A DNA stretch of 64,000 nt from assembly GCA_051313645.2 (NCBI GenBank), contig JBNRSN020000010.1, positions 68,324,001-68,388,000 on the forward strand, given 5' to 3'. A program made the position numbers and the translations under genes. Positions 31,221 through 64,000 of this stretch are shown here, in pieces; within the stretch, counting starts at the first letter, position 1; each line of letters begins with the position of its first letter. The notes under the pieces are model-generated. The model made no database searches and was not told where the DNA came from. It was given only the letters and a program-made list of their open reading frames with translations. The DNA comes from Centroscyllium fabricii (lineage: Eukaryota).

Positions 31221-32794
31221 TATTCCTGCGGAGTAGCCGAAGAAAGTGAAGGAGGTCTCTGAAAAGTGTTGCTGAGAAACCAGAGGATGTCGCAGCACAA
31301 GCACCTTTGCCAGCCACAAGAGATATTCGGAGGACTCTCATGCAGAGTATTTTATTTTTAATAAACCCTTCCACCCTTTTGCATAAAGTTTCCCCCCATC
31401 TTTCCACAACCAGCCTTGAGATTTGTACAACCAGCCCATTCCTCTGAACTGCACATTTCACTCCCATAGCCATAGAAGTGCACTTGCTGGCCCGCAATCA
31501 CAGCTCAGTGACCCCTGATTCCATTGCTTCCCCATGCTGAAGGTTTGTGCTTCTTCTCGGTGCATCCCCTTGTGGCTGGAACCTGTGAGATGCCTGGCAG
31601 TTGTTTCTGATCCATGAAAGTGAATCAGGGAGTGCAAAATGCTGATGTTGGCTGCCAAAAGTATTCCTTCACTGTGACCAGTGCCAAAACTGCCTAAGAA
31701 TGCAAATAGGAACAAATGATAGGAAGTACAAAAAGAGGGTAGATTTTCCTCTGCATTGTGCTTGGAGAACTGACATTCCCTGCTCACAGGGCAGAGGATA
31801 ACGGGGCAGAGACTCGTCAGGGCTCTGCTTCATTGCGCTACCCTGGAATTTTCTAAGGCTTTTCGACAAAGCCTACTGGACCTTTTCCTTGAATAGGCAC
31901 AGGCCCAGTAAGAAGGTGGAGGGGCAGCTATTTTATTAAGGTGGTAATGGTCCTTCCGAGCCTCCTGCCTCATTTTCAGAGGACTGTGATAGGTTAGCAC
32001 CCCTGTGGAGGGACGTAAGAAGCGTCTTCCCCTGATACCCCACAGACATTTTGTTTAAGGTTGAATTAGATTCTGTGCACACGCTAAATTCCATGGCTGC
32101 AGAGGAGTGAATGAAGGGGAGAGTAAACGACCCTAAACTGGTGGCGCCACACTACAAATTGCAACATCCTTCCAATCACTTATATACCTTGACCTACTCT
32201 TTACACGGATGAGGGAACCTCACCATATTTTATACATTCTGGTGGGTCAGAGACAGAGATTCCTGGCGGCACAATCCCGGCACTTAAACTGATACCAAAG
32301 GTCTGCAAATTTCTGGCCTGTGTTTGTGTGTGTGTGCAAACATGCACAAAGTGAAGCCAAGAACAAGAAGGAGAGAAAATAAATCAAATGGTGTTTTTAA
32401 TAAATAAATGAGAATTAAATCATGACATCTTCGGTGAGTTTCTATTTGAATCACTCAACATAGAGTCATAGTCCTCAATGTTCCTTGAGCCGTCAGGCAG
32501 GCTTTTCGGCAGCCGGGGAGGCAAAATAGCAAAAGTGGAGGGTCGGGACCCCTTCCGCTGGATTCCCCACACATCGCCTCCCACCGGATTCCCCACACAT
32601 CGTGATTTTCCCCCTGCCGTGTCTGTTCGACCCGTTTCAGTCCCGCCCGTGACCGGCGGGAATGGTCTTTAGGCACCTTAATCACCATTAATTGGCACCT
32701 ATAATGCCATTTTAGGGGGCCCTTGCAATTTTCAGCCTTTTCCACACAAAACCCGGCAGTTGGAAACCCCGCCGGTGATACCTGGCGGGGGCAT

Positions 32795-34046
32795 TGCGAC
32801 GGTTTACTGCAACCTGCCTCATCCAGGAACTGCCCCTAAATAAGTTGACTTCCTATTTCACCGCGCTGCTCTAAACAGTCATTGATCCAATGGTCAGAAG
32901 TTATTCTATATTGAACTAGGCTATATATCCCTTCTATAAGAACAGGGTTCTTTCAGTAAGTCACTGATTTCTATCCGACTTAGGGTCTGTAGGTTAAAAC
33001 CGTAAGAAGAACCTGCTATGGTCCTGAATCGAGATGAGTGCTTAGTGCCGAATGCGGTCTATTTTGCTAACTTAAAAGTATTTGAATCAAGACTGGTTGT
33101 TGGATATAAATGGTTCAAGAGATCTTGAATTATTTATTTTCTTTTAACATTTGCATTTTAGTTCGGTCATATATATATTTAGATTGTTACAAGGTTATAC
33201 TTTATCACAGAAAATAATGTAATAATTAATAACAGTAGTACAGCAAACCAACATAAAAGTTTTTCATCTCACCAACGTCAGGTGCTTTTCGGATTGGAAG
33301 CTAAACCATCGATCAAACAACAAGCCTGTATGTTTGAGAGGAAAGCTGCATTCACTCGAACTCTGGAAACAGCTTAGAAGCTGGAGTCAATTCGATCGAT
33401 CGATTTGACTAGCTATTTAGCTGGAGCCAGCCTGATCTTGATGGCTGACTAACTTTCTGTCTGAATTGGGCTGCTTTTTATACACATAAATTGCTGAATT
33501 GCAATACGTCATGCCCCCTATCTGTGGGGGGGGGGGGTCAGTTAGACACGTGGTCAATTTTTAACTTCTTTATAATATATATTTCTTTACCTTTCAAAAA
33601 CTAACTGACCTTTTGGTCATGGATTACTTCGGCCATTTTCTTAACAAGGTGTTTCCTGTTTTTGTTACAATGATATCTAAAAATTGTTAGGTCAGATCAT
33701 CACTTTCTGGGAACTGGACTTTGTGGTCAGTTGTTTTTCATACTGCGATCCTTAGGAGATAGGCCAGACTTTTCATAATGAAACTCCAGTATCCTGCCTT
33801 TCCATCTCTCAAAATAGTTCTAATCTTGTGGTCAAGCTTTCTACGCCTTCAGAGACCCACCATCTGCTCTCAAAAGGGAACTTTAGGCAATTATCATTCA
33901 AGTTAATTTGACAGGCTTTCATTCTGCATTCTAAGCAGTTTGTTTCTTTAAAAAGACATTCTAAATCAGCCCTTTTTTTCTACAAAGTTTGGAAAGTACA
34001 TTTAATCAATCTTATAGCTGCGAGAAATTAAACAATTACCGCCACA
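32795..34046 (-). repeat. 3' LTR of the foamy provirus (1252 bp)
   Basis: Near-identical to 47366-48624 (about 10 substitutions by eye plus a poly-G length difference). Preceded on the minus strand by the purine tract GAGGGGGG. AATAAA at 33133-33138 (minus). Confidence 0.96.
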
Positions 34047-34071
34047 CCCCCCTCATGGACTTTTCAAATCT

Positions 34072-34476
34072 CTATCTCAAGCTTCCCATCGTATTTTTTC
34101 TTAACTTTACATACACAAGAATCCATAATATAATCATACACACAATTAGTATGTTACATAGTGATAATAGACTAACAAGGGTCCATCCCATAATCATCTC
34201 GGTGTGATCCAGATTCCGGGTCGTATTTTCTGGTTTCTTTAACAGTTTCCATCCTAGGACAAGTCCTATTACTGACATAACTAATACCCAAATTATTACT
34301 GTTAAAGTCATCCATATTTTACATTTCCACAACTTTTTTAATGTCCATCTTCTAAATGGGTCATGGCTTCGTTTTGATTTCTTTTGTTTCTCCTTTAATC
34401 TTTTATTTCGTCTGGGATGTCCATCTGGCATCTTGTGCTTTGGATTAAGCTTTCTTTCTATAAAGGAAGGGTACAT
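34072..34476 (-). CDS. Accessory ORF, 134 aa, basic N-terminus plus two transmembrane helices
   Basis: RRNKRLKEKQKKSKR tract, two ~22-aa hydrophobic segments with an NTT sequon between them. Ends just before the PPT. Confidence 0.75.
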   Translation of the reverse strand: MYPSFIERKLNPKHKMPDGHPRRNKRLKEKQKKSKRSHDPFRRWTLKKLWKCKIWMTLTVIIWVLVMSVIGLVLGWKLLKKPENTTRNLDHTEMIMGWTLVSLLSLCNILIVCMIILWILVYVKLRKNTMGSLR

Positions 34477-34514
34477 AAGTTAGACTGATACTCCTAAGAG
34501 GATCAGGACTCATT

Positions 34515-36272
34515 TTACTGGCATTGTCCGGTATCTCCACTATGATTCCATTCGTCATAATATTCATCATCAGCTTCATCTTCCGATATTGATTCCAACA
34601 TGGCTAATCGTAACCACAAGGGTGTTGATGTAGAACCTCCAGTGGGGTACATAGTCATGTATTCTTCCTTTGTGAAGATATCTTCTCCTCCGTTAGCTTC
34701 ATCTCCATCTTCCTCTGAGTTTTCATAGGAAGTGTCAAATTCTTCTTTCTTCCAGTAGTATTTTTCTCGATTAGTTGTTTCCTGAGTATTTTCCCAGGTG
34801 GGAATCCAGGAAGGGTAAAAACATTCTTCCATCTCTACTTCTTCTCCGAGAGATTTCTGTTTAGTTTGTCTTTCTTCTTTCCATTTGTTAAATGGGGTTG
34901 TGATATAGGCTCCTTCTGCCCACCATATGTTTTTCAATGGTTCTTCTCTATCTTTAGAGTATCCTGTGACTCTGTTCTTTTCTTCATCTGTTAGGTCTAC
35001 ACTTTCCCATGTAGCCATTGTTATTCGATTTTTTCCTTGTCGACTCATTTCTAATTCAAAGTGATTTCTGAAGGTGTGGCTTGGTTCATTATCTTTTTCA
35101 GGACAGGGTATGTCTGTATTTATATCTTGTACCAATTTTGTCATGCCTGCTGTCAGCGGTATTGTCCATTTTTCTGGTTCATCACACAACCATTTTAAGG
35201 TTGTCAGTAGCTGAGGGTTTAATCCATGGCAATATTCCAGGGGTCTGCCTCTTTCTAGAGGTCCCAATAGGCTGAGAAATAGGGCCATTTGTTGTCCTTT
35301 TCTTTCTTCCATTATGGTAAATACTTCTCCTGCACAAGTGTGTTTTTCTCCTTCGCTTAAATCTTTTTCTTCTTCTACTGAAGCGGTTATCATAGCAAAT
35401 GATGGCCAGCATATAATATTGGGCCAAAAATGTTCTGGTTTAAGGAATATTTCTCTAATTCCTTTACATATGTCTGTCCATGTAAAACCTGTTTGTAGGT
35501 TATTATTTCTTCCCCAGATTAGTTGGCATAGTGATTTTAGTTGGTCATTTTTCCATTCTTCTATTTCTTTATCCAGTACTCCTGTTTTCGGAGCGCGTTT
35601 TGTAAAATTACTTTTTGCGTGGCTGCTGTCCCAATGATCTAGTGTATAGATTATTTTTATTCTTAAGATTATTCCTGCCTTCTTTCCTATCCTCTTACAT
35701 TTGTTGCAGCACGGTGTTTGGTTTTTGTTTGAGGTATAGCATAAGACACATTGATTTGCGTGTCCTGTTTCGTGGTATTTTATGCATACAGTTCCTGGTA
35801 CCTCCTGATTCATTGTCCACATGGTACGGGTATAGATCATTCTACATCCTCGAGCCTCGGTGATTATTTGTCTCATTAGGCCATGTTTTGCAAAAGGTAC
35901 TGTTAATGTTTCAGGAGTTGATTTTCTAGTCATTAAAGTGACTATAGTAGTTATGGGTTTATCATTGTCTATTGGTTCTTGCCATTCTGCATCTATGAAG
36001 GCCGGGTTGTGTTCTTTTTGATTATTTCTTACAACCGTGTTATCGGTTTCCTCAGTTCGGGTGAGCCATCCCTCCTTGGTCCATCCTCCTGAGGGTAGGG
36101 TGGTGGAGCGGTTGGTCCCTGAATCTGATGTACTTGTTTCAGTTTGGGATTTTTCGCTTTCCCGGTTACCAGGTAGATAACTCCTTCTACTTCCAGAAGG
36201 CCTGGTAGTTCCTGATCGTTGTTGAAGTGAGGGGAACGAGTGAAGGCTATAGCTGAGCTGCAGGTGGGACAT
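34515..36272 (-). CDS. Accessory ORF, 585 aa, Cys/His cluster and acidic C-terminus (candidate transactivator/Bet-like)
   Basis: Long open frame in viral sense with CIKYHETGHANQCVLC...CCNKC and an acidic-aromatic tail. Confidence 0.85.
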   Translation of the reverse strand: MSHLQLSYSLHSFPSLQQRSGTTRPSGSRRSYLPGNRESEKSQTETSTSDSGTNRSTTLPSGGWTKEGWLTRTEETDNTVVRNNQKEHNPAFIDAEWQEPIDNDKPITTIVTLMTRKSTPETLTVPFAKHGLMRQIITEARGCRMIYTRTMWTMNQEVPGTVCIKYHETGHANQCVLCYTSNKNQTPCCNKCKRIGKKAGIILRIKIIYTLDHWDSSHAKSNFTKRAPKTGVLDKEIEEWKNDQLKSLCQLIWGRNNNLQTGFTWTDICKGIREIFLKPEHFWPNIICWPSFAMITASVEEEKDLSEGEKHTCAGEVFTIMEERKGQQMALFLSLLGPLERGRPLEYCHGLNPQLLTTLKWLCDEPEKWTIPLTAGMTKLVQDINTDIPCPEKDNEPSHTFRNHFELEMSRQGKNRITMATWESVDLTDEEKNRVTGYSKDREEPLKNIWWAEGAYITTPFNKWKEERQTKQKSLGEEVEMEECFYPSWIPTWENTQETTNREKYYWKKEEFDTSYENSEEDGDEANGGEDIFTKEEYMTMYPTGGSTSTPLWLRLAMLESISEDEADDEYYDEWNHSGDTGQCQ

Positions 36273-37039
36273 TTTTCCGAAGTTTTTGGCGCTTTCACTC
36301 GAGGTGGGACTACGATTTTTTCAGCCGATAAGGTTTTTAAATAAAATCTAATAAAGTATAATATAAAAATACCAAGTGAAATTGTACATACTAGTCTTCC
36401 TGGTATAGTCCTTTCCCATCCTAGGAACAAAAGTCCTAAGATGTATATTCCTATCACGGCTTGTAATATGGCATTATACCTAGGTCGGTTTTCTTTATTA
36501 TGTAACATTAAAAACTTTTGTTTGTTACAGTAGGACTTGTAAGCCAGGTTTATCAATATCCATGTAAAAAACATAGCCGTGGGTATCCCATAGTCTAAGT
36601 ATTTCTTTGCTTCTGTTTCCATAAGCCACAAACTTTGTGATGTTACAGTAACTAGGCAAATTACGAGGGATATGATAAACTGCCATCTTCCTAAGAAGGT
36701 ATCTGTTTGTGTTTTATATTGTCCGTATGAGAATTGATAACTGAGGGTAATCATAAAAGGAAAGGCTGCATGATATCCTGCTTGAGTCCAGTTATGAATA
36801 TGGTTGTGGTTTCTAACAGCGGTTGTTAGGTTTTGTAGGGTTTCTCCCCCCTCACCACTGTTATAAGCCACAAATGCCTCTAAAGCAGTCAAAATACAAA
36901 GCGGTAGTGCCATCATAACGTAATATGGGCCTCCCGATTTTCTTAGTCGTTTAAATTTTAGCCTGAGCACTACGATGATTATGACCATGATAAATAATGT
37001 GTAATTAACGACACATCCCCAGTATCCTTTGATTCCCAT
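36029..37039 (-). CDS. Accessory ORF, 336 aa, predicted seven-pass membrane protein with PTAPPPY tail motif
   Basis: Seven hydrophobic segments in aa ~5-232 and a polar tail with CPTC and PTAPPPY (36095-36115). Confidence 0.85.
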   Translation of the reverse strand: MGIKGYWGCVVNYTLFIMVIIIVVLRLKFKRLRKSGGPYYVMMALPLCILTALEAFVAYNSGEGGETLQNLTTAVRNHNHIHNWTQAGYHAAFPFMITLSYQFSYGQYKTQTDTFLGRWQFIISLVICLVTVTSQSLWLMETEAKKYLDYGIPTAMFFTWILINLAYKSYCNKQKFLMLHNKENRPRYNAILQAVIGIYILGLLFLGWERTIPGRLVCTISLGIFILYFIRFYLKTLSAEKIVVPPRVKAPKTSEKCPTCSSAIAFTRSPHFNNDQELPGLLEVEGVIYLVTGKAKNPKLKQVHQIQGPTAPPPYPQEDGPRRDGSPELRKPITRL

Positions 37040-37077
37040 CGTCTGTTGTTCCTATAATGATAAAAATAAGTTTTATT

Positions 37078-37554
37078 TTACAGATTCAATAAATCGTCCA
37101 ATGTAGGAGCATAAGAAGGTTCATATGTGAACTCTTGATTCCATTCAAAGGTGAAATTCACAGGTTCTGATATGAATTTTTCTTCTATTTTGTTTCGGTA
37201 CTTCTGGTTCTTTACATTGAACTTTTTCCAGTTTATTTGCCCCTTGGTTAATGCAAGAGGTGGTTTCTGAGGTGGAAACAGTGTTTTCCATTAGCATTCT
37301 TTTTGGTGAGACCCACGTCATCAAATTTGGGCTAAATTTTGCAGTATTGAGTGGGATCCCATCAAAGGTTTGATAAGTGCCGGAAATCCGGTTTTTTCAC
37401 TTATTTGAAAGTCAAAAGCTTGTGATTTTGATAATGTTGATGCGGCCAATTGATACATAATGATTTCATTTCTTTATTCAGGGTGTTGGTCAATTTCCTT
37501 TAGGGCTTGTTTTTGACATGTGTCACTGAATTGGTGATTTCTGAGCGAATTCAT
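37078..37554 (-). pseudogene. Decayed 158-codon accessory ORF immediately after env
   Basis: The ATG overlaps the env stop (ATGA). One frame runs to TAA at 37078 with four internal stops and ends APTLDDLLNL (hand-translated). Confidence 0.55.
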
Positions 37555-38855
37555 TTTCTTCGGCACAGAAGTGGTTGAAGGATTTTAATGGCCACCAATC
37601 CACCTATAGCGAACAAGCCATATTTTAAATATGATCCAAAACCCATGAAGTCGTTAAAGGAACTCATTATTCCGCCGAACATTGATCCAAAGAAGCCAAA
37701 TATGCCTGAGAAGGCATCCCCCATAGCGGGTAATATGTCTCCCAGAGCTTCTCCTAACGCATTAAAAACGTCTGCTATTTGTGCACCATATGAGGTGTCT
37801 ATCTCATTTAGGTGTGTTCTTAGGTTATTGATTTGTTCCTTAATGTTCCAATTGGTATAGGTGACTATTAATGTTGTTTTTCTTGTGGCTGCTAATACGT
37901 CAGCTAATTTTGAGATCATGATATTGATATCATAATCAATTTCTGGTATTATTGTAATGGTGTTTTTACCTAATTGAGGGTATAGTGTTTTACCACAGCA
38001 TTTAGCTTTAGTACTAGGGGTAACCATCCAGGTACCTATTCCCATTTGACAGCTATCATTACATGTTTTAATTGTCGAGATCATATATGATCCGTTATTT
38101 AATGAAGTGATTTGATCATAATCCTTGTCTATAGGGATCATTTGGACAGGACATGCTCTGCGTGAGCAGGGTTCAATTTTATCCCATTCGTAGAGCATAT
38201 TCCCTTGGCGTTCTGTTCTAATAATTCCTTTGTACGGGTACATGTTTCCTGATTCATTGAAGGCTATGGTGTAATCATGTTTAATTTTCTGTTTATAACA
38301 TGATTTACCAGTACAGTAAGGTACTCCGTGGTTGATCATGGTGTAGGTTATGTTGTTCATTGTATCCTCCGTAATCATTGGGATGGATATTATAATTTGT
38401 AGTTCTACGGTAATGGCATAGTATATTTGGGTACCTCGTTCGGTGACTGGTTCAACTATAACTATGTTCATTAACCGACAATTTGCCATGATAATTTGGG
38501 TGCTACTGATGTATTGATATTGACTTAATACGTCCCTTGGTATCCAGTCTATTTCCGGAATTCCCAATCTCATTGCATCTTCTGTTTTTTGTATAATAGT
38601 ATCTATGATTTTATCCTGGTTGGCCGTATTAACTAAATTTAGAGCTTCTATGATTTGTTCTAGGCCCATAATATGGGTTTCGTGTAGGGCGAGAGAAAAT
38701 GCAGTTAAATTTTGTTGATTAGTAGTTAGATCGTTTACCCATTCTCCTAGGTCACTTAATATGTCAGTAGACATTTGTTGTCCCTTTTTTAAATTTTCTG
38801 GGACATTTCCCGTTGTTAAAGTTATTATTGCTAAGAGGAGAAGGACGATCAACAT
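37551..38855 (-). CDS. env: Env TM (fusion) subunit encoded as a separate ORF with its own signal peptide
   Basis: MLIVLLLLAIITLTTG leader, heptad-like region, IDW motif, Cys-rich ectodomain, amphipathic membrane-proximal region, C-terminal anchor and short basic tail CRRK. Confidence 0.85.
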   Translation of the reverse strand: MLIVLLLLAIITLTTGNVPENLKKGQQMSTDILSDLGEWVNDLTTNQQNLTAFSLALHETHIMGLEQIIEALNLVNTANQDKIIDTIIQKTEDAMRLGIPEIDWIPRDVLSQYQYISSTQIIMANCRLMNIVIVEPVTERGTQIYYAITVELQIIISIPMITEDTMNNITYTMINHGVPYCTGKSCYKQKIKHDYTIAFNESGNMYPYKGIIRTERQGNMLYEWDKIEPCSRRACPVQMIPIDKDYDQITSLNNGSYMISTIKTCNDSCQMGIGTWMVTPSTKAKCCGKTLYPQLGKNTITIIPEIDYDINIMISKLADVLAATRKTTLIVTYTNWNIKEQINNLRTHLNEIDTSYGAQIADVFNALGEALGDILPAMGDAFSGIFGFFGSMFGGIMSSFNDFMGFGSYLKYGLFAIGGLVAIKILQPLLCRRK

Positions 38856-38867
38856 GTTACCTTATTC

Positions 38868-40544
38868 CTAAATTACAGTAGTATTTATGAAGGTCCACTG
38901 AAGAGCCGGCGTTAGGTCGAAGAACGTCAGTTTTTCTGGCTCCCGGTCTATCTCGCTGCACCTTAGTGCTGTGCCAAAATGACAGGAAATATAGTGAGTT
39001 AAATTATCGCCTATATCTACTTTGGTCAGTTTATTTGTTTCTTTTGGTACTTTGAATACCCATTTTATCTCTGATTCCCAGTTTTCAATGCTGGCTTTAA
39101 TTTGTTCTATTGTGGGTTTAGATTTGTCTTTGTTTAGAGTTTCATTTCTCATTATGTTCCACACTGAGTGCCAAGTAGCTTGTGTTAATTTTCCAGTTTC
39201 TATTTTGTTAAAGTTTTTGTTAAGAGGTCCTACTCCCTCCTTTGCCCTATATATTTTCCATGGAAATTCGATTATATTTTTAGTCTGTCCTCTGGCATTC
39301 GTAATATTTGTACTACATTTTCCGTATCCTGTTTCATTTTTACAGGTGACTTGTCCCCAGGTTTTTTTGCTGTTATTTTTTAACATCGTGTAGTAGGGTC
39401 TCATACAGAATTCAGGGGGATCTGAGTTTCGGAAGAAATTTCTACCAATAGGCTGTTTTAGCTTGGTTTTTAGGTCTTCTATGGGTCTGATACTTTTATC
39501 AAACCATCTGCCGTAGTTTCGGTTATCACATATCATATGCCATCCTTGCTCAATTTTTGGGATGGTGTATGTTATATTTCCAACGTTTTTGGTTAGAAAT
39601 GTTTCGGCCGGGGAGAAGAAAACCCTTTTGGAATTAGTATAACTGCAATTACATCGACTACTTTTACTTTCGCAACTTGTAGTCTGTTGGCACCATAATT
39701 TTTGTTGGTTTATGAGCCATAATGACTGGTGATGGGTTCCTTCATCTCCCATATTATCATTCTGGTAAGGCCATGCACAATGGTCCATCCTCACAGACTG
39801 AGGTTGTCGGGTAGTTTTTACAAAGGTAATTAAGCAGTGTAGGTATTTATTTATATCTTCTCTTTCTTCCTTAAATTGTGGTAATTTAATCTGAGGAGAT
39901 AACTTCATGATCCTGTCAGAAAATTCTTGTAATTTTCGTCTAACCATTATCCGGGGAGTTCCTGCTTTAAGATTCATCATATTAATGATTATTCCTGAGT
40001 CCAAGACTATTTTTAAAGGGACTAATACTTGTCCCTGGTCACGGTAAATAGGCTTGGGTTCCTTTTTCCAGCAGATACCATTTTTTATTGGTCTAACTTG
40101 ACACAAAGGGTGATTGTTATTATTGTTATTATTTGTGTCATTTTCTAGTGCTGACTGTGTCATAGGTCGGCAGGATTGGTTTAATGTCCCTGCTACTGCC
40201 GATACTAGTATTATTCCGATAAGGAATAGAAAAAGTATGGTAAGTAGCAGTACCGTGAAACATTTTTCACATCGTCCCATATTTTTATGGGTCTGTTCTT
40301 TTCTGGCGCAGTTAGTGATGTTAATTTTCACCTCTTCTTTTGGTCGATTGTTTTGACCTTTCATTTTATTAAATTTATTCTGTAGGGGTTTCTTATTTAT
40401 TATTACTTTTCTCCTTTTTTGTAATCTATTCCTTATGTGTCTAAAAGGATCTATTAGTGATTCTAATTCGATAGTGGTCTGGTAATGATTTGGTTCCGCA
40501 GGGATCTGGTCTTCCTCCAGGCGGTTCATCCAATCGCGACTCAT
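38868..40544 (-). CDS. env: Env leader peptide plus SU subunit (type II membrane topology)
   Basis: ~95-aa cytoplasmic N-terminus, hydrophobic anchor and many N-glycosylation sequons. Foamy SU-like blocks IKNGICWKKEPKPI, DHCAWP and HYISC. Confidence 0.88.
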   Translation of the reverse strand: MSRDWMNRLEEDQIPAEPNHYQTTIELESLIDPFRHIRNRLQKRRKVIINKKPLQNKFNKMKGQNNRPKEEVKINITNCARKEQTHKNMGRCEKCFTVLLLTILFLFLIGIILVSAVAGTLNQSCRPMTQSALENDTNNNNNNNHPLCQVRPIKNGICWKKEPKPIYRDQGQVLVPLKIVLDSGIIINMMNLKAGTPRIMVRRKLQEFSDRIMKLSPQIKLPQFKEEREDINKYLHCLITFVKTTRQPQSVRMDHCAWPYQNDNMGDEGTHHQSLWLINQQKLWCQQTTSCESKSSRCNCSYTNSKRVFFSPAETFLTKNVGNITYTIPKIEQGWHMICDNRNYGRWFDKSIRPIEDLKTKLKQPIGRNFFRNSDPPEFCMRPYYTMLKNNSKKTWGQVTCKNETGYGKCSTNITNARGQTKNIIEFPWKIYRAKEGVGPLNKNFNKIETGKLTQATWHSVWNIMRNETLNKDKSKPTIEQIKASIENWESEIKWVFKVPKETNKLTKVDIGDNLTHYISCHFGTALRCSEIDREPEKLTFFDLTPALQWTFINTTVI

Positions 40545-40788
40545 CGTCTTAGGGAGCTTTAAATCCTTTTGATACTGGTCTACAGTTATCTATCGATATA
40601 GTTCTGCTTGCGCCGGAATCAAGTCCTATGGTCACTGTGCGTTCTCCAACAGAGGTGACCTGTTGAGGAAGGCGAAATCTTGTTTTAAGTGCTTTTCCGG
40701 CTTTGTGAGACTTTTTCTCCTGTATAAAATCCCCTACCTGGGGTTGCCAGTGTTTAAAAGTGTTATTCTTTACTGCCTCCTGCGCCCT

Positions 40789-41310
40789 TTCTTCTGATAT
40801 TTTTGACATCATGTCTCTTAATTCGTCTCTTAAATCGGTATCATACAAACTATTTGGATTACTTAGTTTTGTATGAAGTTGTATCCCAAATTGTAAAAAG
40901 TAGGGGGTAATATGTTTCTCTGGTCCTAAGACATTCAGGGGAGTATTATTTCTTCTGATATTTTAGTCATCATATCCCTTAGTTCCTCCCGTAAATCGGT
41001 ATAGGGTACTGGGGTTACTTAATATTCAAGGGAGTTTTATTTCTTCTGATATTTTAATCATCATATCCCATAGTTCCTCCCGTAAATCGGTATAGGGTAC
41101 TGGGGTTACTTAATTTTATATTTAACTGAAACCCATATTGTAAATAATACGAGGTCCTAAGATATTTTAAATTTATATTATATTTAACTGAACACCATAT
41201 TGTAAATAATACGGGGTCCTAAGATATTTTAAATTTATATTATATTTAACTGAACACCATATTGTAAATAATACGGGGTCCTAAGATATTCAAGGGAGCT
41301 TTGTTAATTG
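40789..41310. repeat. Complex tandem duplications inside integrase (62-bp unit ~3x; ~73-bp block 2x plus a diverged third copy)
   Basis: CCATATTGTAAATAATACG(G/A)GGTCCTAAGATATT occurs three times at 62-bp spacing. TTCTTCTGATATTTTA...GGGGTTACTTAAT occurs at ~40950 and ~41041. Confidence 0.9.
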
Positions 41311-43978
41311 CCAGCTGTACATCACTCGACAGTTTAGCCCACTATGCTCCGCGTACGGTGCACATCTTAGATATGGCCATTTTGGCATCTTGATTTTTCC
41401 TTTCTACCATACCACTTAATTGTGGATGTAAAGGGGTGCTGAATTCCAATTTTATGCCCCGTAAATTGACAGAACTCGAGAAAGACGCCAGAAGTAAATG
41501 CAGGGCCTTAATCGGAATGAATTATCACGGGTGGTCCAGCACCTGTAAGAGCCATGTTGACGGCTTAAATAGCATCAGTGCTTAGTACAGCTTTTTGTGG
41601 GCCCTAACTGTGTTTTAGGAGGTGCAGACATCAACAATAACCAAGACATATACGTTTATTCGACTGTAAGGGGGGTTTCCTTTTGAAGGCGGCAATGATC
41701 CAATAAAGTCTATTTGCCATTTTATTCCAGGTTGGTCAGGTTTAATTTGTACTATATGAGGCGGTCTAATTATGCCAGCCCCTTTAGTAAATTGTAGGCA
41801 GATTTGACAATTAGTGACATAAGCCTTACATTCTTCCAATCAGAATTGCCACCAGTATTTTTACATTAAATGGGATGCAGTAGTCTTACACCCCCATGGG
41901 TTGCTCCTGTCCCTGTATGAGCTTCTTTAATTAGGCTTTGTCTGTCTTTTTCAGGCAGTATTATTTTACATTTATAATCCGGTTCTCCTGCCTTTTTAAC
42001 CAATATGTCTCCGTTATTTCCCACTGAATATACATAGTATGAAGGATATCCCTTAGGATAAATTCCTTTAATGAGTTCTTTTTGAGTGTTATCTTGTTTT
42101 GCTGTAACAGTTGCTCTTGTAACAATGCAAATTTTTAATTATCTCAATCCAATGGTAGAGTCTAGTGCCTTTTTGGCAGCCAGATCTGCTAGTCCATCTC
42201 CATAAGCATGTATTCCTGTTTTCTGATGTGCAGGTACATGTTTAACCATTAAATTTGGCATATTTCTTATAAATTGATCTATTTTTCTCCACCATTTTAC
42301 GTGGAGTATAGGTTTCCCTCTATGATCCTTGAAACCATTATCCGTCCAGTCTGTAAGCAATTCACTACAGCCTCTATGGCAATAGAGGCTGTCGGTACAT
42401 AGTAATATTGCTTTTTATTTCTATCCTGGGGGTAACTCCCTTTAAAGCTCTATATATGGCTATTACTTCGGCCATTTGAGCGGAGTGTTTTTCCCCTACA
42501 TAATATAATTCAGTATGGATAGGTATAAAACCATCCGGGGACCAATGTCCTTTAACAATACCGGCTCCATCTGATAATATGGCTGCTTGGGCTGATCCAT
42601 CAGCATATATTGCTAAGTTGAATTCATCTTCAGGCTTAGTCTCTCCCTTGTCTTTTTGTTTTGAGCTTGCAAACTCGGGTAGGTTCCAACTAACTACTGG
42701 TGTATTGGCGTCTTTGCACCATTTAATGGGGGTATCTATTTTAACGATATCCCATTTATCATATCTGGCCCTATGTACTTTGTGATCCCTCTTGATGCTG
42801 TCCCTGCTGTAATTTAGTTCAGGTAGGTTAGTATATACATATATACTGCCGTTTCCTTGATACTTACTAATATGTATCAGTCCGTTTGTTAACAGAGTAA
42901 GAGTTTCTTCTAGTTTTTGAAACTTTTGTTCTGTCCTGCTAAAATTCATTGAATAATACTGAAAAGTGGTACTCACTATTTCAATGTGAGGGGTTTTCTT
43001 TCCCTCAGTTTCTCTTTAAATTCTGAAGTCAATCCTCTTCCTTGATCTGTTATTTCTACTCCTAAAAAGGTTACTGTACTTTTGGCTATAGTTGATTTTT
43101 TCAACGTTACTTTATATCCGGTATTCATTAGAATTTCTAGGATTTTGTGTAGAACTATAAAGTGTTCCTCTAGGCCAGTAGTAGATATGTATATATCATC
43201 TACATGAGTATTCTTGCCTTAAGGGGGCTAATACTTTTAATACTTCTGAGGAGAAAATTTGCGGTGAATTAACATATCCTTGGGGTAATCTTGTCCAGCA
43301 ATATTGTTTTCCTTCTGGAGAAGTAATTGCTGTGTATTTGTAATCATTCTCATGTATGGGGTGACTCCAAAATCCATTGGCTAGGTCAAGAGTAGTTTTA
43401 TATTTTTTCCTTTCAAGTTGTAAAGTTTGAGTGGTCAGATTCAGAAAGGCTCCTTTGTACGATACCGAAGCTTCGTTTAGAGCTCGATAATCACAGACGA
43501 GTCTAAATATTCCTGCTTCTTTCTTTTTTACCCCTATTATCGGGGTATTGAACTCTGATGATTTTTCTATCAGAACACCTTGTTTTTCTAGATCTTTAAT
43601 TATTTCCGTAACCGCCCTTCTGGCTTCTTTTTTGTGTATTATATATTGTGGGGGTACAGTGAATCTGTTCATTCCCGTCGGATCAGGGGTTTTTTGATGG
43701 AGAAATCCACAGTGATTTCTATGTTTTTGCCATACTTCCCAGTGTGTCTGTACTAAGTTTTTGATTCTTGCTCTTACTGTTGGATTTGTTTCAGTATCCA
43801 TTTGGATCTGTAGGTGTTCTGATCGGTCATCAGGGTTTTTAATCAATAACCCGTATCTATTGATCTCTGATATTCCTAATACCATTTTTACATCTAGTTC
43901 TTGTTCTATATTTGGTATTCCAGCGGCCCAACATTGAAATGTGGTGCCGTTGTCTAATTGCACTGATACTTTGTAGGT

Positions 43979-45240
43979 CCAGGGTGGCATCCCCGCCACC
44001 CTGGACCAATACCAGTTCGCCTACCGGGGGAACAGATCTACAGAGGATGCTATCACTACGGCTCTTCACTCTGCACTAAACCACCTGGATAGCAAAGATA
44101 CATATATCAGAATGCTGTTTATTGACTACAGCTCAGCATTCAACACCATCGTCCCCAGCAAATTGTCTACCAAACTCCTCACCCTCGGCCTGAACACCTC
44201 CCTCTGCAACTGGACCCTGGACTTCCTAACCAACAGACCACAGTCTGTGAAGTTAGGCAACCTCACCTCCCCCCCCCTTACCCTGAACACGGGGGCCCCA
44301 CAAGGTTGTGTGCTCAGCCCCCTCCTCTACTCCCTCTTCACTCACGACTGTGCGGCTGTCCATGGCTCCAACACGATCATCAAGTTCGCGGATGACACCA
44401 CGGTGGTTGGCCAGATCACCAACAACGACGAGTCAGCCTACAGGGATGAGATCCAGCACCTTGTGGGTTGGTGTGCCGACAACAACCTGGCACTGAACAC
44501 CAAGAAAACGAAGGAGATCATAGTGGACTTCCGGAGGACTGGAAGCAGAAGACACACACCCATCTTCATCCAAGGGGCTGAGGTGGAAAGGGTGTCCAGC
44601 TTCAAGTTCCTCGGGGTCCACATCTCGGAAGATCTCTCCTGGTCACTAAACACCTCCTCTCTGGTTAAGAAGGCCCAACAGCGCCTGTACTTCCTTAGGA
44701 AGCTGAAGAAAGCCAGGCTGTCATCCGGCATCCTCTCCAACTTCTACCGCTGCACAATAGAAAGCATACTGACAAGCTGCATCACTGTCTGGTATGGTAA
44801 TTGCACTATCTCGGGCCGGAAAACCCTGCAGCGGGTAGTCAAAACTGCCCAACGAATTACCGGTACACAGCTACCGTCAGTGGAAAGCATCTACCTCAAA
44901 CGCTGCTTACGGAGGTCTATGAACATTATAAAAGACCCCACACACCCCAGCCACAGTCTGTTCGCCCCTCTGCCCTCCGGGAGACGCTACAGAGCAATTT
45001 GCACCCGCACGACTAGATTTCAGAACAGCTTCTTCCCCAGGGCTGTCAGCCTCCTGAACTCTAAAAAGAAACTCCGGTACCTGCACGCCTGATAATGAAC
45101 TTTACTGTATGCAATTTATTTATGTAATTTATTTATTTTGTCTACACTACTCTCGGGAGAGTTGAGTCTTCGTCTCGTTGTATTGTACTAGTACTCTGCA
45201 ATGACAATAAAACTTGAATTGAATTGAATTGAATTGAATT
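43979..45240 (+). mobile_element. 5'-truncated Rex1/Babar-type LINE inserted antisense into the viral protease
   Basis: RT motifs [22 protein letters not shown] and KFADDT, AATAAA and a (TGAAT)n tail. Removing it restores the protease frame VVDTYKVSV. Confidence 0.9.
44112..45092 (+). CDS. Rex1-type reverse transcriptase C-terminal part
   Basis: [22 protein letters not shown] and [10 protein letters not shown]. Confidence 0.85.
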
Positions 45241-47084
45241 GTATCTACTACCATTGTTTGTCCGGAGAAGCCTTTTATTTTTAATTGTTCCCCTTTTTTA
45301 CATTCTAATCTTTTGGCGAGGTCTTCATCAATGGCTGAGCCCTCTGCACCGGTATCTATTAGAGTTTGGGCCCAAAACCAATCTTTGTTTCTTCCAGTGA
45401 CCTGGGTCTTTATATATGGAAATTGATTTTCTTCTGACTCATGATGTCCCGAGGGAGGGTTGGGTGTGGCATTTCTGATCATTCTGAATTGTCTTGGGGC
45501 CTGATTATTTCCTTGTCCTCTGTTTCCTCCCCCTCTGCCTCTGCTATTTCCTCTACCCCTAGGTGGCTGTCCACCTCGAGTAGATTGGGTAGGTCCTTGA
45601 TTTCGACCTTGGTTTCCTTGGTAATTTGTTCCTTGCCTCCAGTCTCCCCCCTCATATCTAGCTCCCTGGTATGAGGTCTGAGCCTGGCCCTGGGAATTTC
45701 GGTCCCTGAAATTATAGTTTCTATTTTGATAATTTTGATTTCGTTGGAAACTCTGGGCTGGGGGCTCCGAGGCTCCGGTGGGAGTCGGGGTTCCTTGATA
45801 TCGTTGGACTCTAGGCTGGTCATTTTGATAGTTTCTTTGAGGGGCTCTAGTTGGGGGGGTGGCATCAGGTTGAACCCATCTGGGCGTATATCTCTGATCT
45901 GCCTGTGGTCTAGGCGGTCCTTGTCCTCGCACTCGGGCTCTGCCTCTAGGTGCGGGAGGTCGTGGACCCGTAGGTGCTACACCGGTCCCATATTCTCCTG
46001 TTTCTCCTCCTATTCTTGCTTTTTGTCCTACTTCTCTCGTAGGTACTGTGTATAGGCCAGCAATTCCATTAACACTGTCTGCCAATGTTATCCAAGGATT
46101 TACTCCTAGGCCTCTATCACGGATATCTGCTCTAATCATATTTTCATGTGTCCCATTATTCAATGATCTGAATACAGTATTCTTAGCTTTGTCCCAATCT
46201 AGACCTAGGGCGCCAGCTGTTTCTGCCACTGCCACTAAATCTCCACAATGTTTTATCAGATTTTTTATTATAATGTTAGTGGCTGCCTCTAAGCCTTGTC
46301 CGTATATATTCTGGTGAGCTTGTGCTAGCATTGTTAGGAAATTACCGCAATGGTGTATCTCCATTTTGAAACATGCCAGTCCGGTGGCTTTCATCATATC
46401 GCATCTTTCCTGATTTGTCAGGTTTCTCAAAAAGACACTAATCTGTTCAAAGTGGTTCAAACCATATTTTATAGCTTCCTTATCTTGTTTTGGAAAATCC
46501 GGGAATGTAGTATGGAATGATTGTACGGTAGTTTTACCATATATCGACCATGGGTCTTGTCTACGGCCTGCTCTTGCGGGACGCTCGGCAAGCCACTCGG
46601 CTTGTTCGTGGCCTGCTTGGGCTATAGCCGTAGCTGCTGTCCTTTGGTTATTTGCGGGTATTAATGTCAGACGATGGGGGGTTACTCTCTTTATCTTAGC
46701 TGGGTCTCGTGGGAAGGCATATGTAGTCATTCCGGGGCACAGAGGGTGTTCTGAAGGACGTAATTCTGATTCTAATCTTTCTATTATGCACATGTGTATT
46801 GGATTCTGAACATTTCCAGAGGGTCCAGGTCCATTTGCCCTATCATCGGGTACTTCACAATCATAATCATGCTCTGTCTCGTTGTCATAAATTATCCTTA
46901 ACGTAAACCTGACTCCTGCTGCTATTGCTCCATTATTCCTTCTATCTAATACATCGTACAGGGATTCATCTCTTGCAGCTCTTTCTACCCCGCCTCTTAA
47001 TGCTACGGGGAAATTATCTCCATAAGCAAGGGCTTGGGGTTGTACATTGGGTCTCCAGTGTTCTCCTGGAGGATCATAGGCCAT
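45241..47084 (-). CDS. gag: Foamy Gag, reading in frame into protease
   Basis: No zinc knuckle. C-terminal Gly/Arg boxes (RGRGNSRGRGGG) and YNFRDR, resembling the foamy chromatin-binding YxLRxR motif. No stop before LIDTGA. Confidence 0.9.
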
Positions 47085-47345
47085 GTTAAGATTTTAAATA
47101 CTTAACTATTTCACTGAAAAGTGGAACTCACTATCTCAATGTCAGTACTGATTTCTAGGGAGGTTGTTTATAGTTGTCCTACCTTTTTACTACGGTATAA
47201 TTTTCTAGTACCTTTATTTTGACTCTCTTTAGTTAGTTTAAAATGTGGGGGGATAGAAGCTAGTGCCCTTTCAAAGACTCACTGCTCTTTAGACTATCAC
47301 TTGATACTTCCTATTTCTAGGTTCGTATCAACTCGACTCAGTCCA

Positions 47346-47363
47346 GCCCCACGTTGGGCGCCA
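47346..47363 (-). promoter_or_regulatory. Primer binding site, tRNA-Lys1,2
   Basis: TGGCGCCCAACGTGGGGC, 2 nt downstream of the 5' LTR. Confidence 0.95.
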
Positions 47364-47365
47364 AC

Positions 47366-48624
47366 TGCGATGGTTTACTGCAACCTGCCTCATCCAGGAA
47401 CTGCCCCTAAATAAGTTGACTTCCTATTTCACTGCGCTGCTCTAAACAGTCATTGATCCAATGGTCAGAAGTTATTCTATATTGAACTAGGCTATATATC
47501 CCTTCTATAAGAACAGGGTTCTTTCAGTAAGTCACTGATTTCTATCCGACTTAGGGTCTGTAGGTTAAAACCGTAAGAAGAACCTGCTATGGTCCTGAAT
47601 CGAGATGAGTGCTTAGTGCCGAATGCGGTCTATTTTGCTAACTTAAAAGTACTTGAGTCAAGACTGGTTGTTGGATATAAATGGTTCAAGAGATCTTGAA
47701 TTATTTATTTTCTTTTAACATTTGCATTTTAGTTTGGTCATATATATATTTAGATTGTTACAAGGTTATACTTTATCACAGAAAATAATGTAATAATTAA
47801 AAACAGTAGTACAGCAAACCAACATAAAGGTTTTTCATCTCACCAATGTCAGGTGCTTTTCGGATTGGAAGCTAAACCATCGATCAAACAACAAGCCTGT
47901 ATGTTTGAGAGGAAAGCTGCATTCACTCGAACTCTGGAAACAGCTTAGAAGCTGGAGTCAATTCGATCGATCGATTTGACTAGCTATTTAGCCGGAGCCA
48001 GCCCGATCTTGATGGCTGACTAACTTTCTGTCTGAATTGGGCTGCTTTTTATACACATAAATTGCTGAATTGCAATACGTCATGCCCCCTATCTGTGTGG
48101 GGGGGGGGGGGGTGGTCAGTTAGACACGTGGTCAATTTTTAACTTCTTTATAATATATATTTCTTTACCTTTCAAAAACTAACTGACCTTTTGGTCATGG
48201 ATTACTTCGGCCATTTTCTTAACAAGGTGTTTCCTGTTTTTGTTACAATGATATCTAAAAATTGTTAGGTCAGATCATCACTTTCTGGGAACTGGACTTT
48301 GTGGTCAGTTGTTTTTCATACTGCGATCCTTAGGAGATAGGCCAGACTTTTCATAATGAAACTCCAGTATCCTGCCTTTCCATCTCTCAAAATAGTTCTA
48401 ATCTTGTGGTCAAGCTTTCTACGCCTTCAGAGACCCACCATCTGCTCTCAAAAGGGAACTTTAGGCAATTATCATTCAAGTTAATTTGACAGGCTTTCAT
48501 TCTGCATTCTAAGCAGTTTGTTTCTTTAAAAAGACATTCTAAATCAGCCCTTTTTTTCTACAAAGTTTGGAAAGTACATTTAATCAATCTTATAGCTGCG
48601 AGAAATTAAACAATTACCGCCACA
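47366..48624 (-). repeat. 5' LTR of the foamy provirus (1259 bp)
   Basis: Matches 32795-34046 and abuts the PBS and TSD. Confidence 0.96.
48046..48053 (-). promoter_or_regulatory. LTR TATA box (TATAAAAA)
   Basis: TATAAAAAGCAGCCC about 570 bp into the LTR, upstream of a GGTGAG donor (47839-47844) and AATAAA. Confidence 0.7.
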
Positions 48625-48819
48625 GCATATTCGGCTTGCTGACTCTCAGCTGCAATCCATCATAAATTATGAGATTGAATCACCCATCATATGCAGGTGG
48701 CAGGACTTTATTTTTTCAGGATTGGGGCAACTTTTAGAAGTCTTAAGCACACCTGTGAAAGGTTGGAACCTCACACATATCTCCAGTGTGAACTCCTGGG
48801 AAACCCCTCTCGGCACCTT

Positions 48820-53606: not shown

Positions 53607-56600
53607 TGTGGTAAACCAGTATTGTACATAGTTGCCATGATGACACTCTGTATCCCTGTACCTGTATTGTAGATAGTTACCATAACAACACTCTGTATTC
53701 CTGTATTCATGTCTCTGTATATAGTTGCCTCTTGGCCACCTTAAGTGGCCACCTTAAGATATCTGGGATGCCACAGCCGGCTCCGCCTCCGGGCGGCGCC
53801 CAGTTGATACCAGTACAAAGGCAGCAACCCTGCTGCCCTCGTGGCATTCCAGGACTAGATGATGATACAACCTACACTTCAGTTTAAAGTTAATAAAAGC
53901 CTCAGTTATTAAACTTCGCTGTTTCTCAGTAATTGATTGCTCATCAATTTTATTAACTTTATTTTAATTGTGAGATGGAGAAGCCATGAACAAAATACTG
54001 CTACCCGCTCACCTGGAGTTGGAGCCACACGCGCCGGACGCACCCCGTAGATTCGCCCATTGGCTGCGGGTGTTTGAACTCTTTCTGGAAGCCTCCCAGG
54101 AGACGGTCGACACGGAAGAGAATAAGCTGGCGGTCCTGCTATCCCGGGTCAGCCCGACGGTTTACACGTTGATTGAGAACGAAACCACCTACACTGGCGC
54201 CCTAGCAACTTTGAAAGACCAGTATGAGACTCCCATGAACGAGGTCTACGTGAGGCATCTGCTGGTGACCCGCAAACAACGGCCCGGTGAGTCCACAGCT
54301 GAATTATTTGGGAGCTGCGAGTCCTTGTGCGGGCCTGCCACTGCAAGGCAGTCTCTGCACAGGACTCTGCTGACAACCTGGTCCGAGATGCCATAGTAGC
54401 AGGGCTCAGGTCGAGCTACACCCGCCAGCGGCTCCTGGAGCAGGAGACGCTGGATCTGAAGAAGGCTGCCGCGCTGGCTCAGGCGCTGGATGCAGCACAT
54501 CAAAATATGGAGGCTTTTGAGCAGCCGTCGGCCTCCTGGGCTGCCCGAGCGCAGCCGTCGTGGACCGGAGGATCGACCCCCGCTGCGCCGCCCCCGCTAA
54601 CGTCCGCCGCCGCCGCCTCGAACCCCGCAGCCGCCGCCTCGAACCCCGCAGCCGCCGCCTCGAACCCCGCAGCGCTGCCCCAGATAGCGAAGTGCCACTT
54701 CTGTGGCCAGTCCAGGTACTCCAGGCAGCGCTGCCCAGCGCGGGAAGCAACCTGCTCGCACTGTAGGAAGAAGGGGCACTACGCGAAAGTCTGCAGGGCC
54801 AGGGCCAGACCCTCCCCCAACGCCTACAGCGCTGCTTGCTATCCGGCGGGGCAGCCATCTTGGAGTCCACCACGAGGTGAGCCTGGGAGCGGCCATTTTG
54901 ATTCTCGTCCTGGGAGCGGCCATTTTGAATCATCTCCGGCCGTGTTTGATCCATGGGCGCAGCCATCTTCACTTTTCCCCTCTGCAGGTTCGTCGACGGA
55001 TCAAGATCTGCTGCTGCCTCAACTGGCCTCCATCACGCTGGACCAGACTCGCCCCCATCAGCTCGCTAAGTCGACGATGGACATCGAGGTAAACGGACAT
55101 GTAATTAATTGCCTTTTTGACTCAGGGAGCACCGAGAGCTTCATCAGCCCGGACACGGTGCGGAAGCTTGCGCTCACAGTCCTCCCGGCACGCCAACGGA
55201 TCTCCCTGGCTTCTCAATCGCAAACCGCGGACGCTACTGGTTACTGTGTTGTCACGCTGACGGTGTGCGGTACTGTTTATAACTGTTTTAGACTCTTTGT
55301 TCTTCCCCACCTTTGCGCTGCCGTTCTACTCGGGCTTGATTTCCAGAGCCACCTGGACAGCGTTACTATGAGGTACGGTGGGCCCCTTCCCCCCATCACT
55401 GTCGGTAGTCAGCAATTTTCAAAGGTACAGCCACACACTGTTTGCAGCCTCTCGACTCTTAAAGTCGCCCCTCCCCCACTGTTCGCTAACCTCAACCCAG
55501 ACTGTAAGCCAATAGCTACTAAGAGCAGGCGCTACAGTGCGGGAGACAGACTTTTCATTAAGTCTGATGTTCAGCGGCTGCTGAGAGAGGGGGTCATTGA
55601 GGCTAGCAACAGCCCCTGGAGAGCTCAGGTTGTAGTCGTAAGGACCGGCGATAAGAATCGTTTGGTTATCGACTACAGCCAAACCATAAACCGGTTTACG
55701 CAGCTGGATGCTTACCCCTTACCGTGCATTTCTGACATGGTCAACCAGATTGCGCAGTATCGGGTATTTTCCACAATTGACCTAAAGTCTGCGTATCATC
55801 AGCTCCCCATCCGTCCCGAAGACCGCCAGTTCACCGCCTTTGAGGCGAACGGCCGCCTTTTTCATTTTCTTAGGGTCCCGTTCGGGGTCACCAACGGGGT
55901 CTCGGTTTTTCAGCGAGAAATGGACCGTATGGTGGACCAGAGTGGGCTGCTGGCTACCTTCCCCTATCTGGATAACGTTACGATCTGCGGCCATGACCTG
56001 CAGGACCATGACGTTAACCTCGCCAAATTCCTTCACATGGCGCAGGCGCTTAACCTTACTTTTAATAAGGAAAAGTGTGTTTTCCGCACCACCCGCCTAC
56101 CCATTCTGGGCTGTGTCGTGGAAAACGGGGTTATTGGCCCTGACCCGGAGCGCATGCGTCCCCTCATGGACCTTCCCCTCCCCCACGGAACCAAGTCCCT
56201 GAAAAGATGCCTGGGCCTGTTCGCTTACTACGCCCAGTGGGTCCCCAGTTATGCGGATAGAGCCCGCCCCCTCCTCAAATCTGTCTCTTTCCCCTTGACG
56301 GCCGAGGCTCGCGCAGCCTTCGAGAGCATCAAGTCAGACATCGCCAAGGCGACCATGCACGCTGTCGACGAGTCCATCCCGTTCCAGGTGGAAAGTGATG
56401 CCTCTGACTTTGCCCTAGCCGCTATCCTCAACCAGGCGGGGAGGCCAGTGGCCTTCTTCTCCCGCACCCTCCAAGGCCCTGAGATCAGACACTCCTCCGT
56501 AGAGAAGGAAGCGCAGGCCATCGTGGAAGCGGTGCGGCACTGGAGACATTACCTGGCCGGTAGAAGATTCACCCTGCTCACTGACCAGCGCTCAGTGGCT

Positions 56601-62800: not shown

Positions 62801-64000
62801 CTCTTGGCCACCGTAGCACACGGGCCCACAGCCACGGAGGTCCGCTGCGACGTCTCCCTCCCGCAGCCCAGACCCGTCGTCCCCCACGCATGGAGGCGAC
62901 ACATCTTCCAGACCCTCCATGACCTGTCCCACCCCGGCGTCCGCGCGTCCACAAAGCTGATTTCTGCGCGTTTCGTTTGGCGCGGCCTGCGCAAGGATGT
63001 CCGCGCCTGGACCAACACCTGCAATGCCTGCCAGCGCGCCAAATTGCACAAGCACATCAAGGCGCCACTTGAAACGATCGCCATCCCAGCTAGACGCTTC
63101 AGCCACGTCCACCTTGACCTGGTCGGACCACTACCACCATCACGGGGACATACACATGTCATGACCATGGTCGACCGCAGCACCCGCTGGCCAGAAGCGG
63201 TCCCCCTCACCGCTACCACCACCGCGGACCTGGCCAGGGCCTTCATTGCCACCTGGGTCGCACGTTTCGGCGTCCCCACCGACATTACATCAGACAGGGG
63301 CCCCCAATTTACCTCAACCCTATGGGCAACCATCGCCCATGACCTCAGGGCAACCCTGCACTGAACCACCGCCTACCACCCACAGGCCAATGGCCTCTGC
63401 GAGAGGTTCCACCGCTCCATCAAAGCTTCCCTACGGGCCAGCCTTAAGGACGCAACCTGGACCGACCGCCTGCCCTGGGTAATGCTCGGCCTACGTTCAG
63501 CGGCCAAAGAAGACCTGCATGCCTCAGCGGCGGAACTCGTGTATGGCCAACCCCTAACCGTACCGGGCGAGTTCGTCGCGGAAACCAACGAACCCTGGTC
63601 AGCCGACCGCTGCCTCAAGGAGTTCAATAACCAGGCAGCGGCGTTCAAACCACTTCCGGTGGCCCGGCACAGAGAGCCAGCAGCACGTGTTCCTGATGGC
63701 ATCGAGAATGCCAAGTATGTGTTTGTCCGCCACGACGCACATCGAACACCACTACAGCCACCGTACGACGGACCGTACAGAGTGCTTCGGGCGGGACCTA
63801 AAACGTTCCAGATAAAAATGGGCAACAGAGCTGAGACTGTCTCAATCGACCGGCTCAAACCGGCACACATAATGGCGGGCGAGACAACAGTCCCCGCGCA
63901 GCCACCAAAACGCGGACGCCCTACCGCACCAAAACCCGCCCACACTCCCACGCAGAACAAGGAGCAGCGCACGACACGTGCTGGCCGCATCATCAGGCCA
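59819..64000 (+). mobile_element. CsRN1-clade Gypsy element (5' LTR ~59819-60095; runs off the window)
   Basis: PBS TGGTGACCTCGA (tRNA-Trp type) at 60097 and Gag CHCC motif CYYH-x9-C-x3-C. Confidence 0.88.
60194..64000 (+). CDS. CsRN1-type Gag-Pol; one nonsense codon at 63362-63364, integrase continues in frame
   Basis: CDTGA, WRPCGDYRRLN, IDLVRGYHQ, TDASD, HLDLVGPLP, SDRGPQF, then TTAYHPQANG after the stop. Confidence 0.88.

Follow-up and report, generated by a model that had tools for sequence, protein, structure and literature searches.

We report that a foamy-like retrovirus family in the genome of the cartilaginous fish Centroscyllium fabricii carries its envelope as two separate genes, env1 and env2, which are homologous to the LP-SU part and the TM part, respectively, of the foamy virus Env. 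The family was followed through 7.2 Gb of genome sequence starting from one provirus in a 64,000-nucleotide stretch of contig JBNRSN020000010.1 (the window). We consider it likely that this provirus is a pol-defective, probably helper-mobilised copy with a two-gene env whose products come together again as one fusion complex, with signal peptidase and not furin doing the priming; what we propose for the two products, their cleavage and their association is read from sequence. A previous sequence-only reading had listed envSU and envTM frames, and both ORFs are real, but the fixed two-gene env had not been remarked upon as the surprise. In window coordinates, the features are as follows.

48624 to 32795, minus strand: foamy-like provirus
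47366..48624, minus strand: 5' LTR (TG...CA), with a TATA-like box at 48053 and a polyA-like signal at 47709
32795..34046, minus strand: 3' LTR
48625..48628 and 32791..32794: target-site duplication GCAT, on both flanks of the provirus
47346..47363, minus strand: primer-binding site (PBS), equal to the mammalian foamy virus PBS
45381..47084, minus strand: gag
45378..45380, minus strand: gag-pol junction codon, Trp in this copy
43979..45241, plus strand: 5'-truncated LINE with a (TTGAA)n tail inside pro, ends approximate
40552..43978, minus strand: remainder of pro-pol, with a broken RT, RNase H and integrase in pieces and a foamy-type SH3 tail
38868..40544, minus strand: env1, 558 aa plus stop, LP-SU homologue
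38856..38867, minus strand: 12-nt env1-env2 spacer with a second in-frame stop inside
37551..38855, minus strand: env2, 434 aa plus stop, foamy TM homologue
37081..37554, minus strand: acc1 relic, end approximate
36032..37039, minus strand: acc2, 336 aa, multi-pass membrane protein
34518..35933, minus strand: acc3, 472 aa, soluble
34075..34476, minus strand: acc4, 134 aa, two hydrophobic segments, gene status uncertain
34047..34054, minus strand: polypurine tract with a GGG/TG border

The order gag-pol-envSU-envTM followed by four further frames had been recognised before and was recovered here on the minus strand, as were the two LTRs of about 99% identity (10 mismatches in 1,252 aligned bases, 0.8%) with GCAT on either side; the suspected cartilaginous-fish host was borne out. 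For the acetylcholinesterase of this genome, one group of solved entries matches at 965-990 bits, followed by 781 and then about 685; the best of them (1ACJ, 1EVE, 2W6C) are enzymes of electric rays, in support of such a host. The PBS, which we take to be of the tRNA-Lys1,2 type, agrees at all 18 nt with the PBS of 13 of the 14 mammalian foamy genomes, in line with the earlier claim, and the motif was not found in the fourteenth. The LINE in pro, identified by its RT and by PF09004, is missing from all four other copies that retain the pro region and entered pro after the provirus had integrated; a short inverted duplication lies at its 5' end (43960-44010). The window as a whole is dense in young retroelements, including three Ty3/gypsy pol frames plus one LINE RT, with long open reading frames (19978-22260, 54303-57881, 60161-63361, 7142-8494).

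In an RT tree, the family and the Logan protein P0007 group together (100/99) as sister to 15 mammalian foamy rows (100/99), apart from nine gamma-like rows, one other retrovirus and four gypsy rows. The RT/IN phylogeny called for by the sequence-only reading is thereby answered in part: RT joins the foamy viruses as represented by mammals, in a tree whose foamy rows, apart from the family and P0007, are all mammalian and in which long branches meet. The foamy identity proposed earlier is upheld by the RT tree, PF03408, PF18103, the PBS and matching 4-bp duplications in all 12 complete copies. Hallmarks present in the family are the RT grouping, foamy-type Env homology, the Lys1,2 PBS, the 4-bp duplication and the GGG/TG border; those that fail, at the DNA level, are the single furin-cut Env precursor and Pol in a separate frame. 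The C-terminal part of Gag is rich in Gly, Arg and Gln (30% Gly+Arg) and has no CCHC (Cys-His) box, which agrees with its earlier description as a GR-box Gag. Gag has no detectable sequence match to mammalian foamy Gag and is 30% identical to the N-terminus of P0007. Foamy-virus-like in priming, integration, Gag and Env fold, the element is most fittingly classed as a foamy-like sister lineage. A metagenome scan returned only distant RTs (26-35% identity). Two Logan sequences, P0001 and P0006, encode full-length foamy Env proteins about 38-43% identical to named ones and are possibly undescribed foamy viruses.

The homology of env2 is to the TM part of the foamy Env only (PF03408, E 3e-21; hhalign to foamy Env, 98%; solved foamy Env, E 4e-10). 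It has its own ATG and a 16-residue uncharged hydrophobic leader, positioned where the furin site would be and predicted to be a signal peptide from hydrophobicity and position rather than by a dedicated predictor. After this leader, env2 starts where the mammalian TM starts, and it ends in a C-terminal anchor. The match of env1 is to LP-SU (hhalign 91%, E 9e-7); on a profile of 20 Envs it scores 14.3 bits, versus at most 2.3 for 100 shuffled sequences, and its N-terminal SU elements are the best-aligned part. It has one membrane helix near residues 96-114 (a type II anchor), has no counterpart of the LP/SU furin region and stops at the C-terminal end of SU. Both env1 and env2 are colinear with 12 mammalian Envs, and the motif R-X-K/R-R occurs in neither. 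WxxW is missing at the N-terminus of env1's leader, which has one Trp within its first 15 residues.

The arrangement of a stop, a second stop and an ATG at the env junction was seen in 30 of 30 loci and kept in 39 of 40 copies, one copy not fitting the pattern; these two sets overlap, and half of the 40 were picked by an independent profile. Among 47 scored PF03408 matches the longest open frame was 437 codons, and four public runs list no variant at the junction. The split is also kept in a divergent lineage that is present in two public runs and has one decayed copy in the genome. There, env is 76% identical (about 24% diverged) and the junction has a different stop codon, a 9-nt spacer and a different but hydrophobic leader. 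Compared between the lineages, the env1 ectodomain has a dN/dS of 0.06 and env2 one of 0.12, dS being above 1; within the family, pN/pS for variants common to three or more of 41 copies is 0.54 for env1 (p 0.01) and 0.27 for env2 (p 2e-5). By these ratios, env1 and env2 are under purifying selection, and the split is older than the divergence of two lineages with near-saturated synonymous sites; it is known from one genome and these two lineages, one of them a single decayed copy. The env1 of this divergent copy is interrupted by a SINE-like insertion (L112:9230-9630), and its 3' part is replaced by gypsy elements. Homologue searches with env2 alone or env1 alone found nothing, and a search of a representative library returned six full-length foamy Envs and nothing else. 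A literature search, mostly at the level of titles and abstracts and including PMC6955096, PMC10581153, bioRxiv 2020.12.18.423569 and bioRxiv 2021.11.23.469661, found no retroviral env split into SU and TM genes.

How could two such genes yield a functional envelope? In mammalian foamy viruses, the fusion peptide at the N-terminus of TM is released by furin, as described in PMC11468914. Because env2 is predicted to bring a signal peptide of its own and lacks a furin site, fusion is likely primed without this usual protease cut. In our proposal, env1 would be a type II membrane protein that is not cleaved and stays as a membrane-anchored LP-SU, and env2 a type I protein that loses its signal peptide; the signal-peptidase cut would create the fusion-peptide end at the position at which furin does so in mammalian foamy viruses. 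Both proteins would then co-fold in the ER. Translation of env2 might use its own spliced mRNA, an internal promoter or reinitiation 9-12 nt past the env1 stop. Contigs from public runs contained no splice joints and are uninformative on expression.

An ordinary LP-SU-TM precursor could instead be restored if splicing rejoined the env frames in RNA, removing the stops and the leader. Foamy viruses splice extensively (reported in PMC7828637), a donor-like AG/GTA stands right before the env2 ATG in both lineages, and an acceptor-like TTTAG/G is present in the main family. The donor-like motif, however, sits past the env1 stop, so its use would leave that stop in place, and upstream of the stop no donor is conserved between the lineages. 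The env2 leader, moreover, is still hydrophobic despite its divergence, and a rejoined Env would remain without a furin motif, which together make this route quite improbable.

For two separate chains, assembly is demanding, because SU and TM build shared domains in the solved foamy Env, which has an F-like fold (PMC11468914). In co-folding, env1 and env2 reached 0.54 (best control 0.00), passing a mark that 116 of 157 solved and 2 of 215 mismatched pairs also passed; with scores of 0.60 or less there were just 18 solved pairs, alongside both mismatches. Contacts agreed between runs to at least 41%, and partner pLDDT was at least 49; single-sequence folding of env1 gave a pLDDT of 37. The pass weakly suggests that env1 and env2 associate, and it may be due to likeness to the solved foamy Env. 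The two halves might also have parted, in an arrangement likened to the attachment protein plus F of paramyxoviruses: env2 would act alone as a fusogen, in receptor interference or as a host-useful protein, and env1 as a separate attachment protein, with no stable complex between them. The type II and type I topologies of env1 and env2 would suit such a division, as would the F-protein fold reported for the foamy Env (PMC11468914), and nothing at the env1 C-terminus aligns with the Cys that joins SU to TM in the mammalian Env. Yet env1 retains those N-terminal SU elements that, in the solved structure, contribute to the fusion core, and the co-folding result, weak as it is, points to association; we therefore regard parted halves as unlikely and prefer reassembly into one complex.

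The second departure from the foamy layout lies at the gag-pol junction. Here gag and pro-pol share one frame, with a junction codon 8 codons ahead of the protease DTG. Exact genome-wide patterns found UGA, in a leaky context, at this codon in 162 loci and Trp in 38, this copy included, with 0 hits for the controls; among P0007-ranked matches, a stop stands 8 codons ahead of DTG in 8 of 10 loci. At this codon the divergent lineage reads TGA CTA, a leaky stop context, and its copy has a one-base shift just upstream of the junction that would reflect decay. The idea that gag-pol is one open frame, based on 24 of 24 motif loci (of 30), was rejected by the 162 UGA loci; it arose because the first sample was biased toward the sub-lineage of this copy. 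In the sequence-only reading, too, the gag-pol order held, but the in-frame UGA was missed, masked by the Trp of this copy. Rows with Trp are nested in UGA rows (21 of 22; SH-aLRT of the Trp clade, 85%), and we infer that the Trp sub-lineage is a derived, constitutive Gag-Pol fusion. By motif spacing, the junction stop would lie within the protease N-terminus, and a Pol spliced to an upstream Met would then still meet it. Pol is likely made as a Gag-Pol fusion by UGA readthrough rather than as spliced Pol, readthrough being the simplest route to it. Counting against readthrough, no unusual RNA structure was detected 3' of the UGA (z -0.3 and -0.7), and P0007 has Glu at this codon.

Downstream of env2, four frames had been read as accessory ORFs. 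All four frames are present and acc2 is selected, but acc1 is a relic, and acc3 and acc4 fall short of significance. The acc1 frame starts at an ATG overlapping the env2 stop and is broken in this copy; it is an internally deleted relic of varying length that is shorter than a Cys-rich ORF of the divergent lineage. That first accessory ORF of the divergent lineage (L113:2285-2900) encodes about 200 aa, is Cys/His-rich and has no Pfam match; in the 40 kb that were examined, the divergent copy showed no 3' accessory region. An acceptor-like site lies 12 nt ahead of the acc2 ATG, the length of acc2 is 336 codons or within 8 of that in 33 of 41 copies, and its shared-variant pN/pS is 0.30 (p 0.002), making it the only accessory ORF with clear selection. 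Five helices of acc2 are over threshold and there are probably seven by prediction. Atlas leads were GPR137_N and THH1/TOM1 (0.82-0.85; model pLDDT 48; best Z 6.9), and the model had no Foldseek match; a seven-helix (7TM GPCR-like) fold is only a lead. The start Met of acc3 is present in 41 of 41 copies, and the protein has an acidic tail, no atlas or Pfam match and no known family. Its pN/pS is 0.66 and that of acc4 is 0.63, neither significant. None of the accessory ORFs matched 28 Tas/Bel2 proteins, and for an internal promoter a simple pattern search showed no TATA-like box in env2; such genes diverge fast. Several accessory genes are not unusual, because teleost foamy-like ERVs are described with up to five (PMC5210030, PMC5512871) and multiple accessory genes are also known from PMC12642411; the multi-gene 3' half, formerly singled out as atypical, is not unusual in this respect.

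The family has at least 700 internal copies in the genome. Rough first-look searches yielded 703 candidates with the env junction, 724 with PF03408, 261 with pro-RT and 1,919 with an LTR end. Twenty copies were fetched by closeness in env; 12 of them had two complete LTRs, which differ by 0.08-1.08%. The provirus in the window had been called young, and it is so in relative terms (0.8% LTR divergence), but its absolute age of 2-8 Myr depends on the rate: about 1.8 Myr under a mammal-like rate and about 8 Myr at 0.5e-9, the rate applied to a catshark (PMC10699275). The LTRs of other copies are 82-94% identical to those of this copy (47366-48624), versus 97-100% in env, a contrast that suggests fast LTR turnover or recombination. 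The small-share run X10 is not counted as evidence for a second host.

Most copies have lost part of pol. The pro-RT region is missing from 16 of the 20 fetched copies, mostly via a few recurring deletions. The provirus in the window, described before as full-length, lacks about 270 nt of RT near 43000 and has its pol in at least six frames. The same gap is crossed continuously by 29 of 39 other scored loci, and several of the frame breaks are common to RT-deleted loci. The start of its pro-RT is 98-100% identical to RT-bearing copies, and the next kilobase is 81-93% identical to all compared copies but one. We infer from this pattern a recombinant mobilised in trans: pol-deleted copies would have spread in trans and then recombined with pol-competent genomes. 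This copy is probably a helper-dependent derivative that was already pol-defective at integration, and for that reason its gene set is not a snapshot of a recently circulating virus, as had been supposed. The integrase remnant (40788-41295) holds tandem duplications of 62 nt and 91 nt whose number differs from copy to copy. All pro-RT-deleted copies showing the motif lack 19 nt near the gag end (window 45490-45510), so that Gag terminates prematurely in another frame; this loss occurs in none of the RT-bearing copies examined. Many RT-bearing copies crowd within a few megabases on contigs C1377 and C800, possibly through segmental or tandem amplification.

With most copies defective and a Trp-to-stop change being a common nonsense mutation, the env split and the UGA could be viewed as ancient disabling mutations of an intracellular retrotransposon in which env is a passenger. 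The dN/dS of 0.06-0.12 argues that this is largely refuted: both env genes are under purifying selection between and within lineages, the stop codons and spacer lengths differ between the two lineages, and an ATG with a hydrophobic leader replaces the cleavage site. The UGA, moreover, stands at the same codon across synonymous saturation, and env outlasts pro-RT (703-724 versus 261 first-look candidates). We give the passenger explanation hardly any credence. The usual pattern in expanding ERVs is env loss; this family, which keeps env and sheds pol in most copies, does the opposite.

It is tempting to go one step further, and with confidence a little above even we propose that in a basal chondrichthyan branch of foamy viruses two genes, each translated separately, supply a class I fusion machine that signal peptidase primes in place of furin, and that this branch makes its Pol through readthrough of a UGA. 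If true, spliced Pol and a tripartite Env precursor would mark one branch of Spumaretrovirinae and not the subfamily, and in nature the receptor-binding half of an F-like retroviral Env could be genetically uncoupled from its fusion half. Class I fusion proteins are normally one chain that is armed by a proteolytic cut. A selected two-gene Env raises the question of how a metastable prefusion state forms with the fusion peptide freed in the ER, and offers a case in which the link of foamy Env to paramyxovirus F can be tested. An in-frame UGA in a basal position of the foamy lineage is also relevant to the question of whether Pol splicing is derived.

Among known systems, the closest relative found is P0007 (Logan, 1,687 aa), with 46% RT identity, a homologous Gag, and Gag and Pol in one frame; its junction codon is Glu and not a stop. 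Wang, Chen and Cui (2023, J Virol 97:e0181622) reportedly described a cartilaginous fish endogenous foamy virus in a basal position. Host class and basal position are the same as here; our lineage is probably the same broad lineage, and that study or its supplements may already cover it. Mammalian foamy viruses are alike in the sister RT, the same PBS, the 4-bp duplication, the GGG/TG border, a GR-rich Gag without a Cys-His box, LP-SU-TM homology, YVDD and the integrase SH3 tail. They differ in having one env with two furin-type cuts, where here there are two genes and none, and in WxxW, Tas and Bel2, to which this family has no counterpart or match. Their pol lies in another frame from gag (14 of 14 genomes), and separate-frame Pol from a spliced mRNA, described as a subfamily hallmark in PMC7828637, contrasts with the in-frame UGA of this family. 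A precedent for the latter is the frog class III element XtERV-S (reported in PMC8278194), which has an in-frame TGA between gag and pol and a GQR-rich Gag, but its genome is a simple one of 8 kb, and its only env is of class I (gamma-type) and not a foamy Env.

Teleost foamy-like ERVs (DrFV, PpERV, AcERV/AciFLERV) share large genomes, several accessory ORFs, a Lys PBS and the 4-nt duplication, and some of their Env-like ORFs are described with signal peptides and without furin sites (PMC5210030, PMC5512871). As described there, however, their env has no detectable homology to foamy Env, whereas both halves are recognisably foamy here; the report of no membrane motifs in the teleost ORFs between pol and env (PMC5210030) runs counter to the idea of a split-off SU. 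An element published from a catshark (9,220 nt, with one env CDS; PMC10699275) was set aside, its reported layout being different. Lokiretroviruses (PMC7947760) and the F proteins of paramyxoviruses and pneumoviruses belong to the same fusion-protein fold family (PMC11468914), but are described as having a single precursor with an RXKR cleavage site, which is lacking here. Moreover, lokiretroviruses are placed as sister to all retroviruses, whereas the RT of this family joins the foamy viruses.
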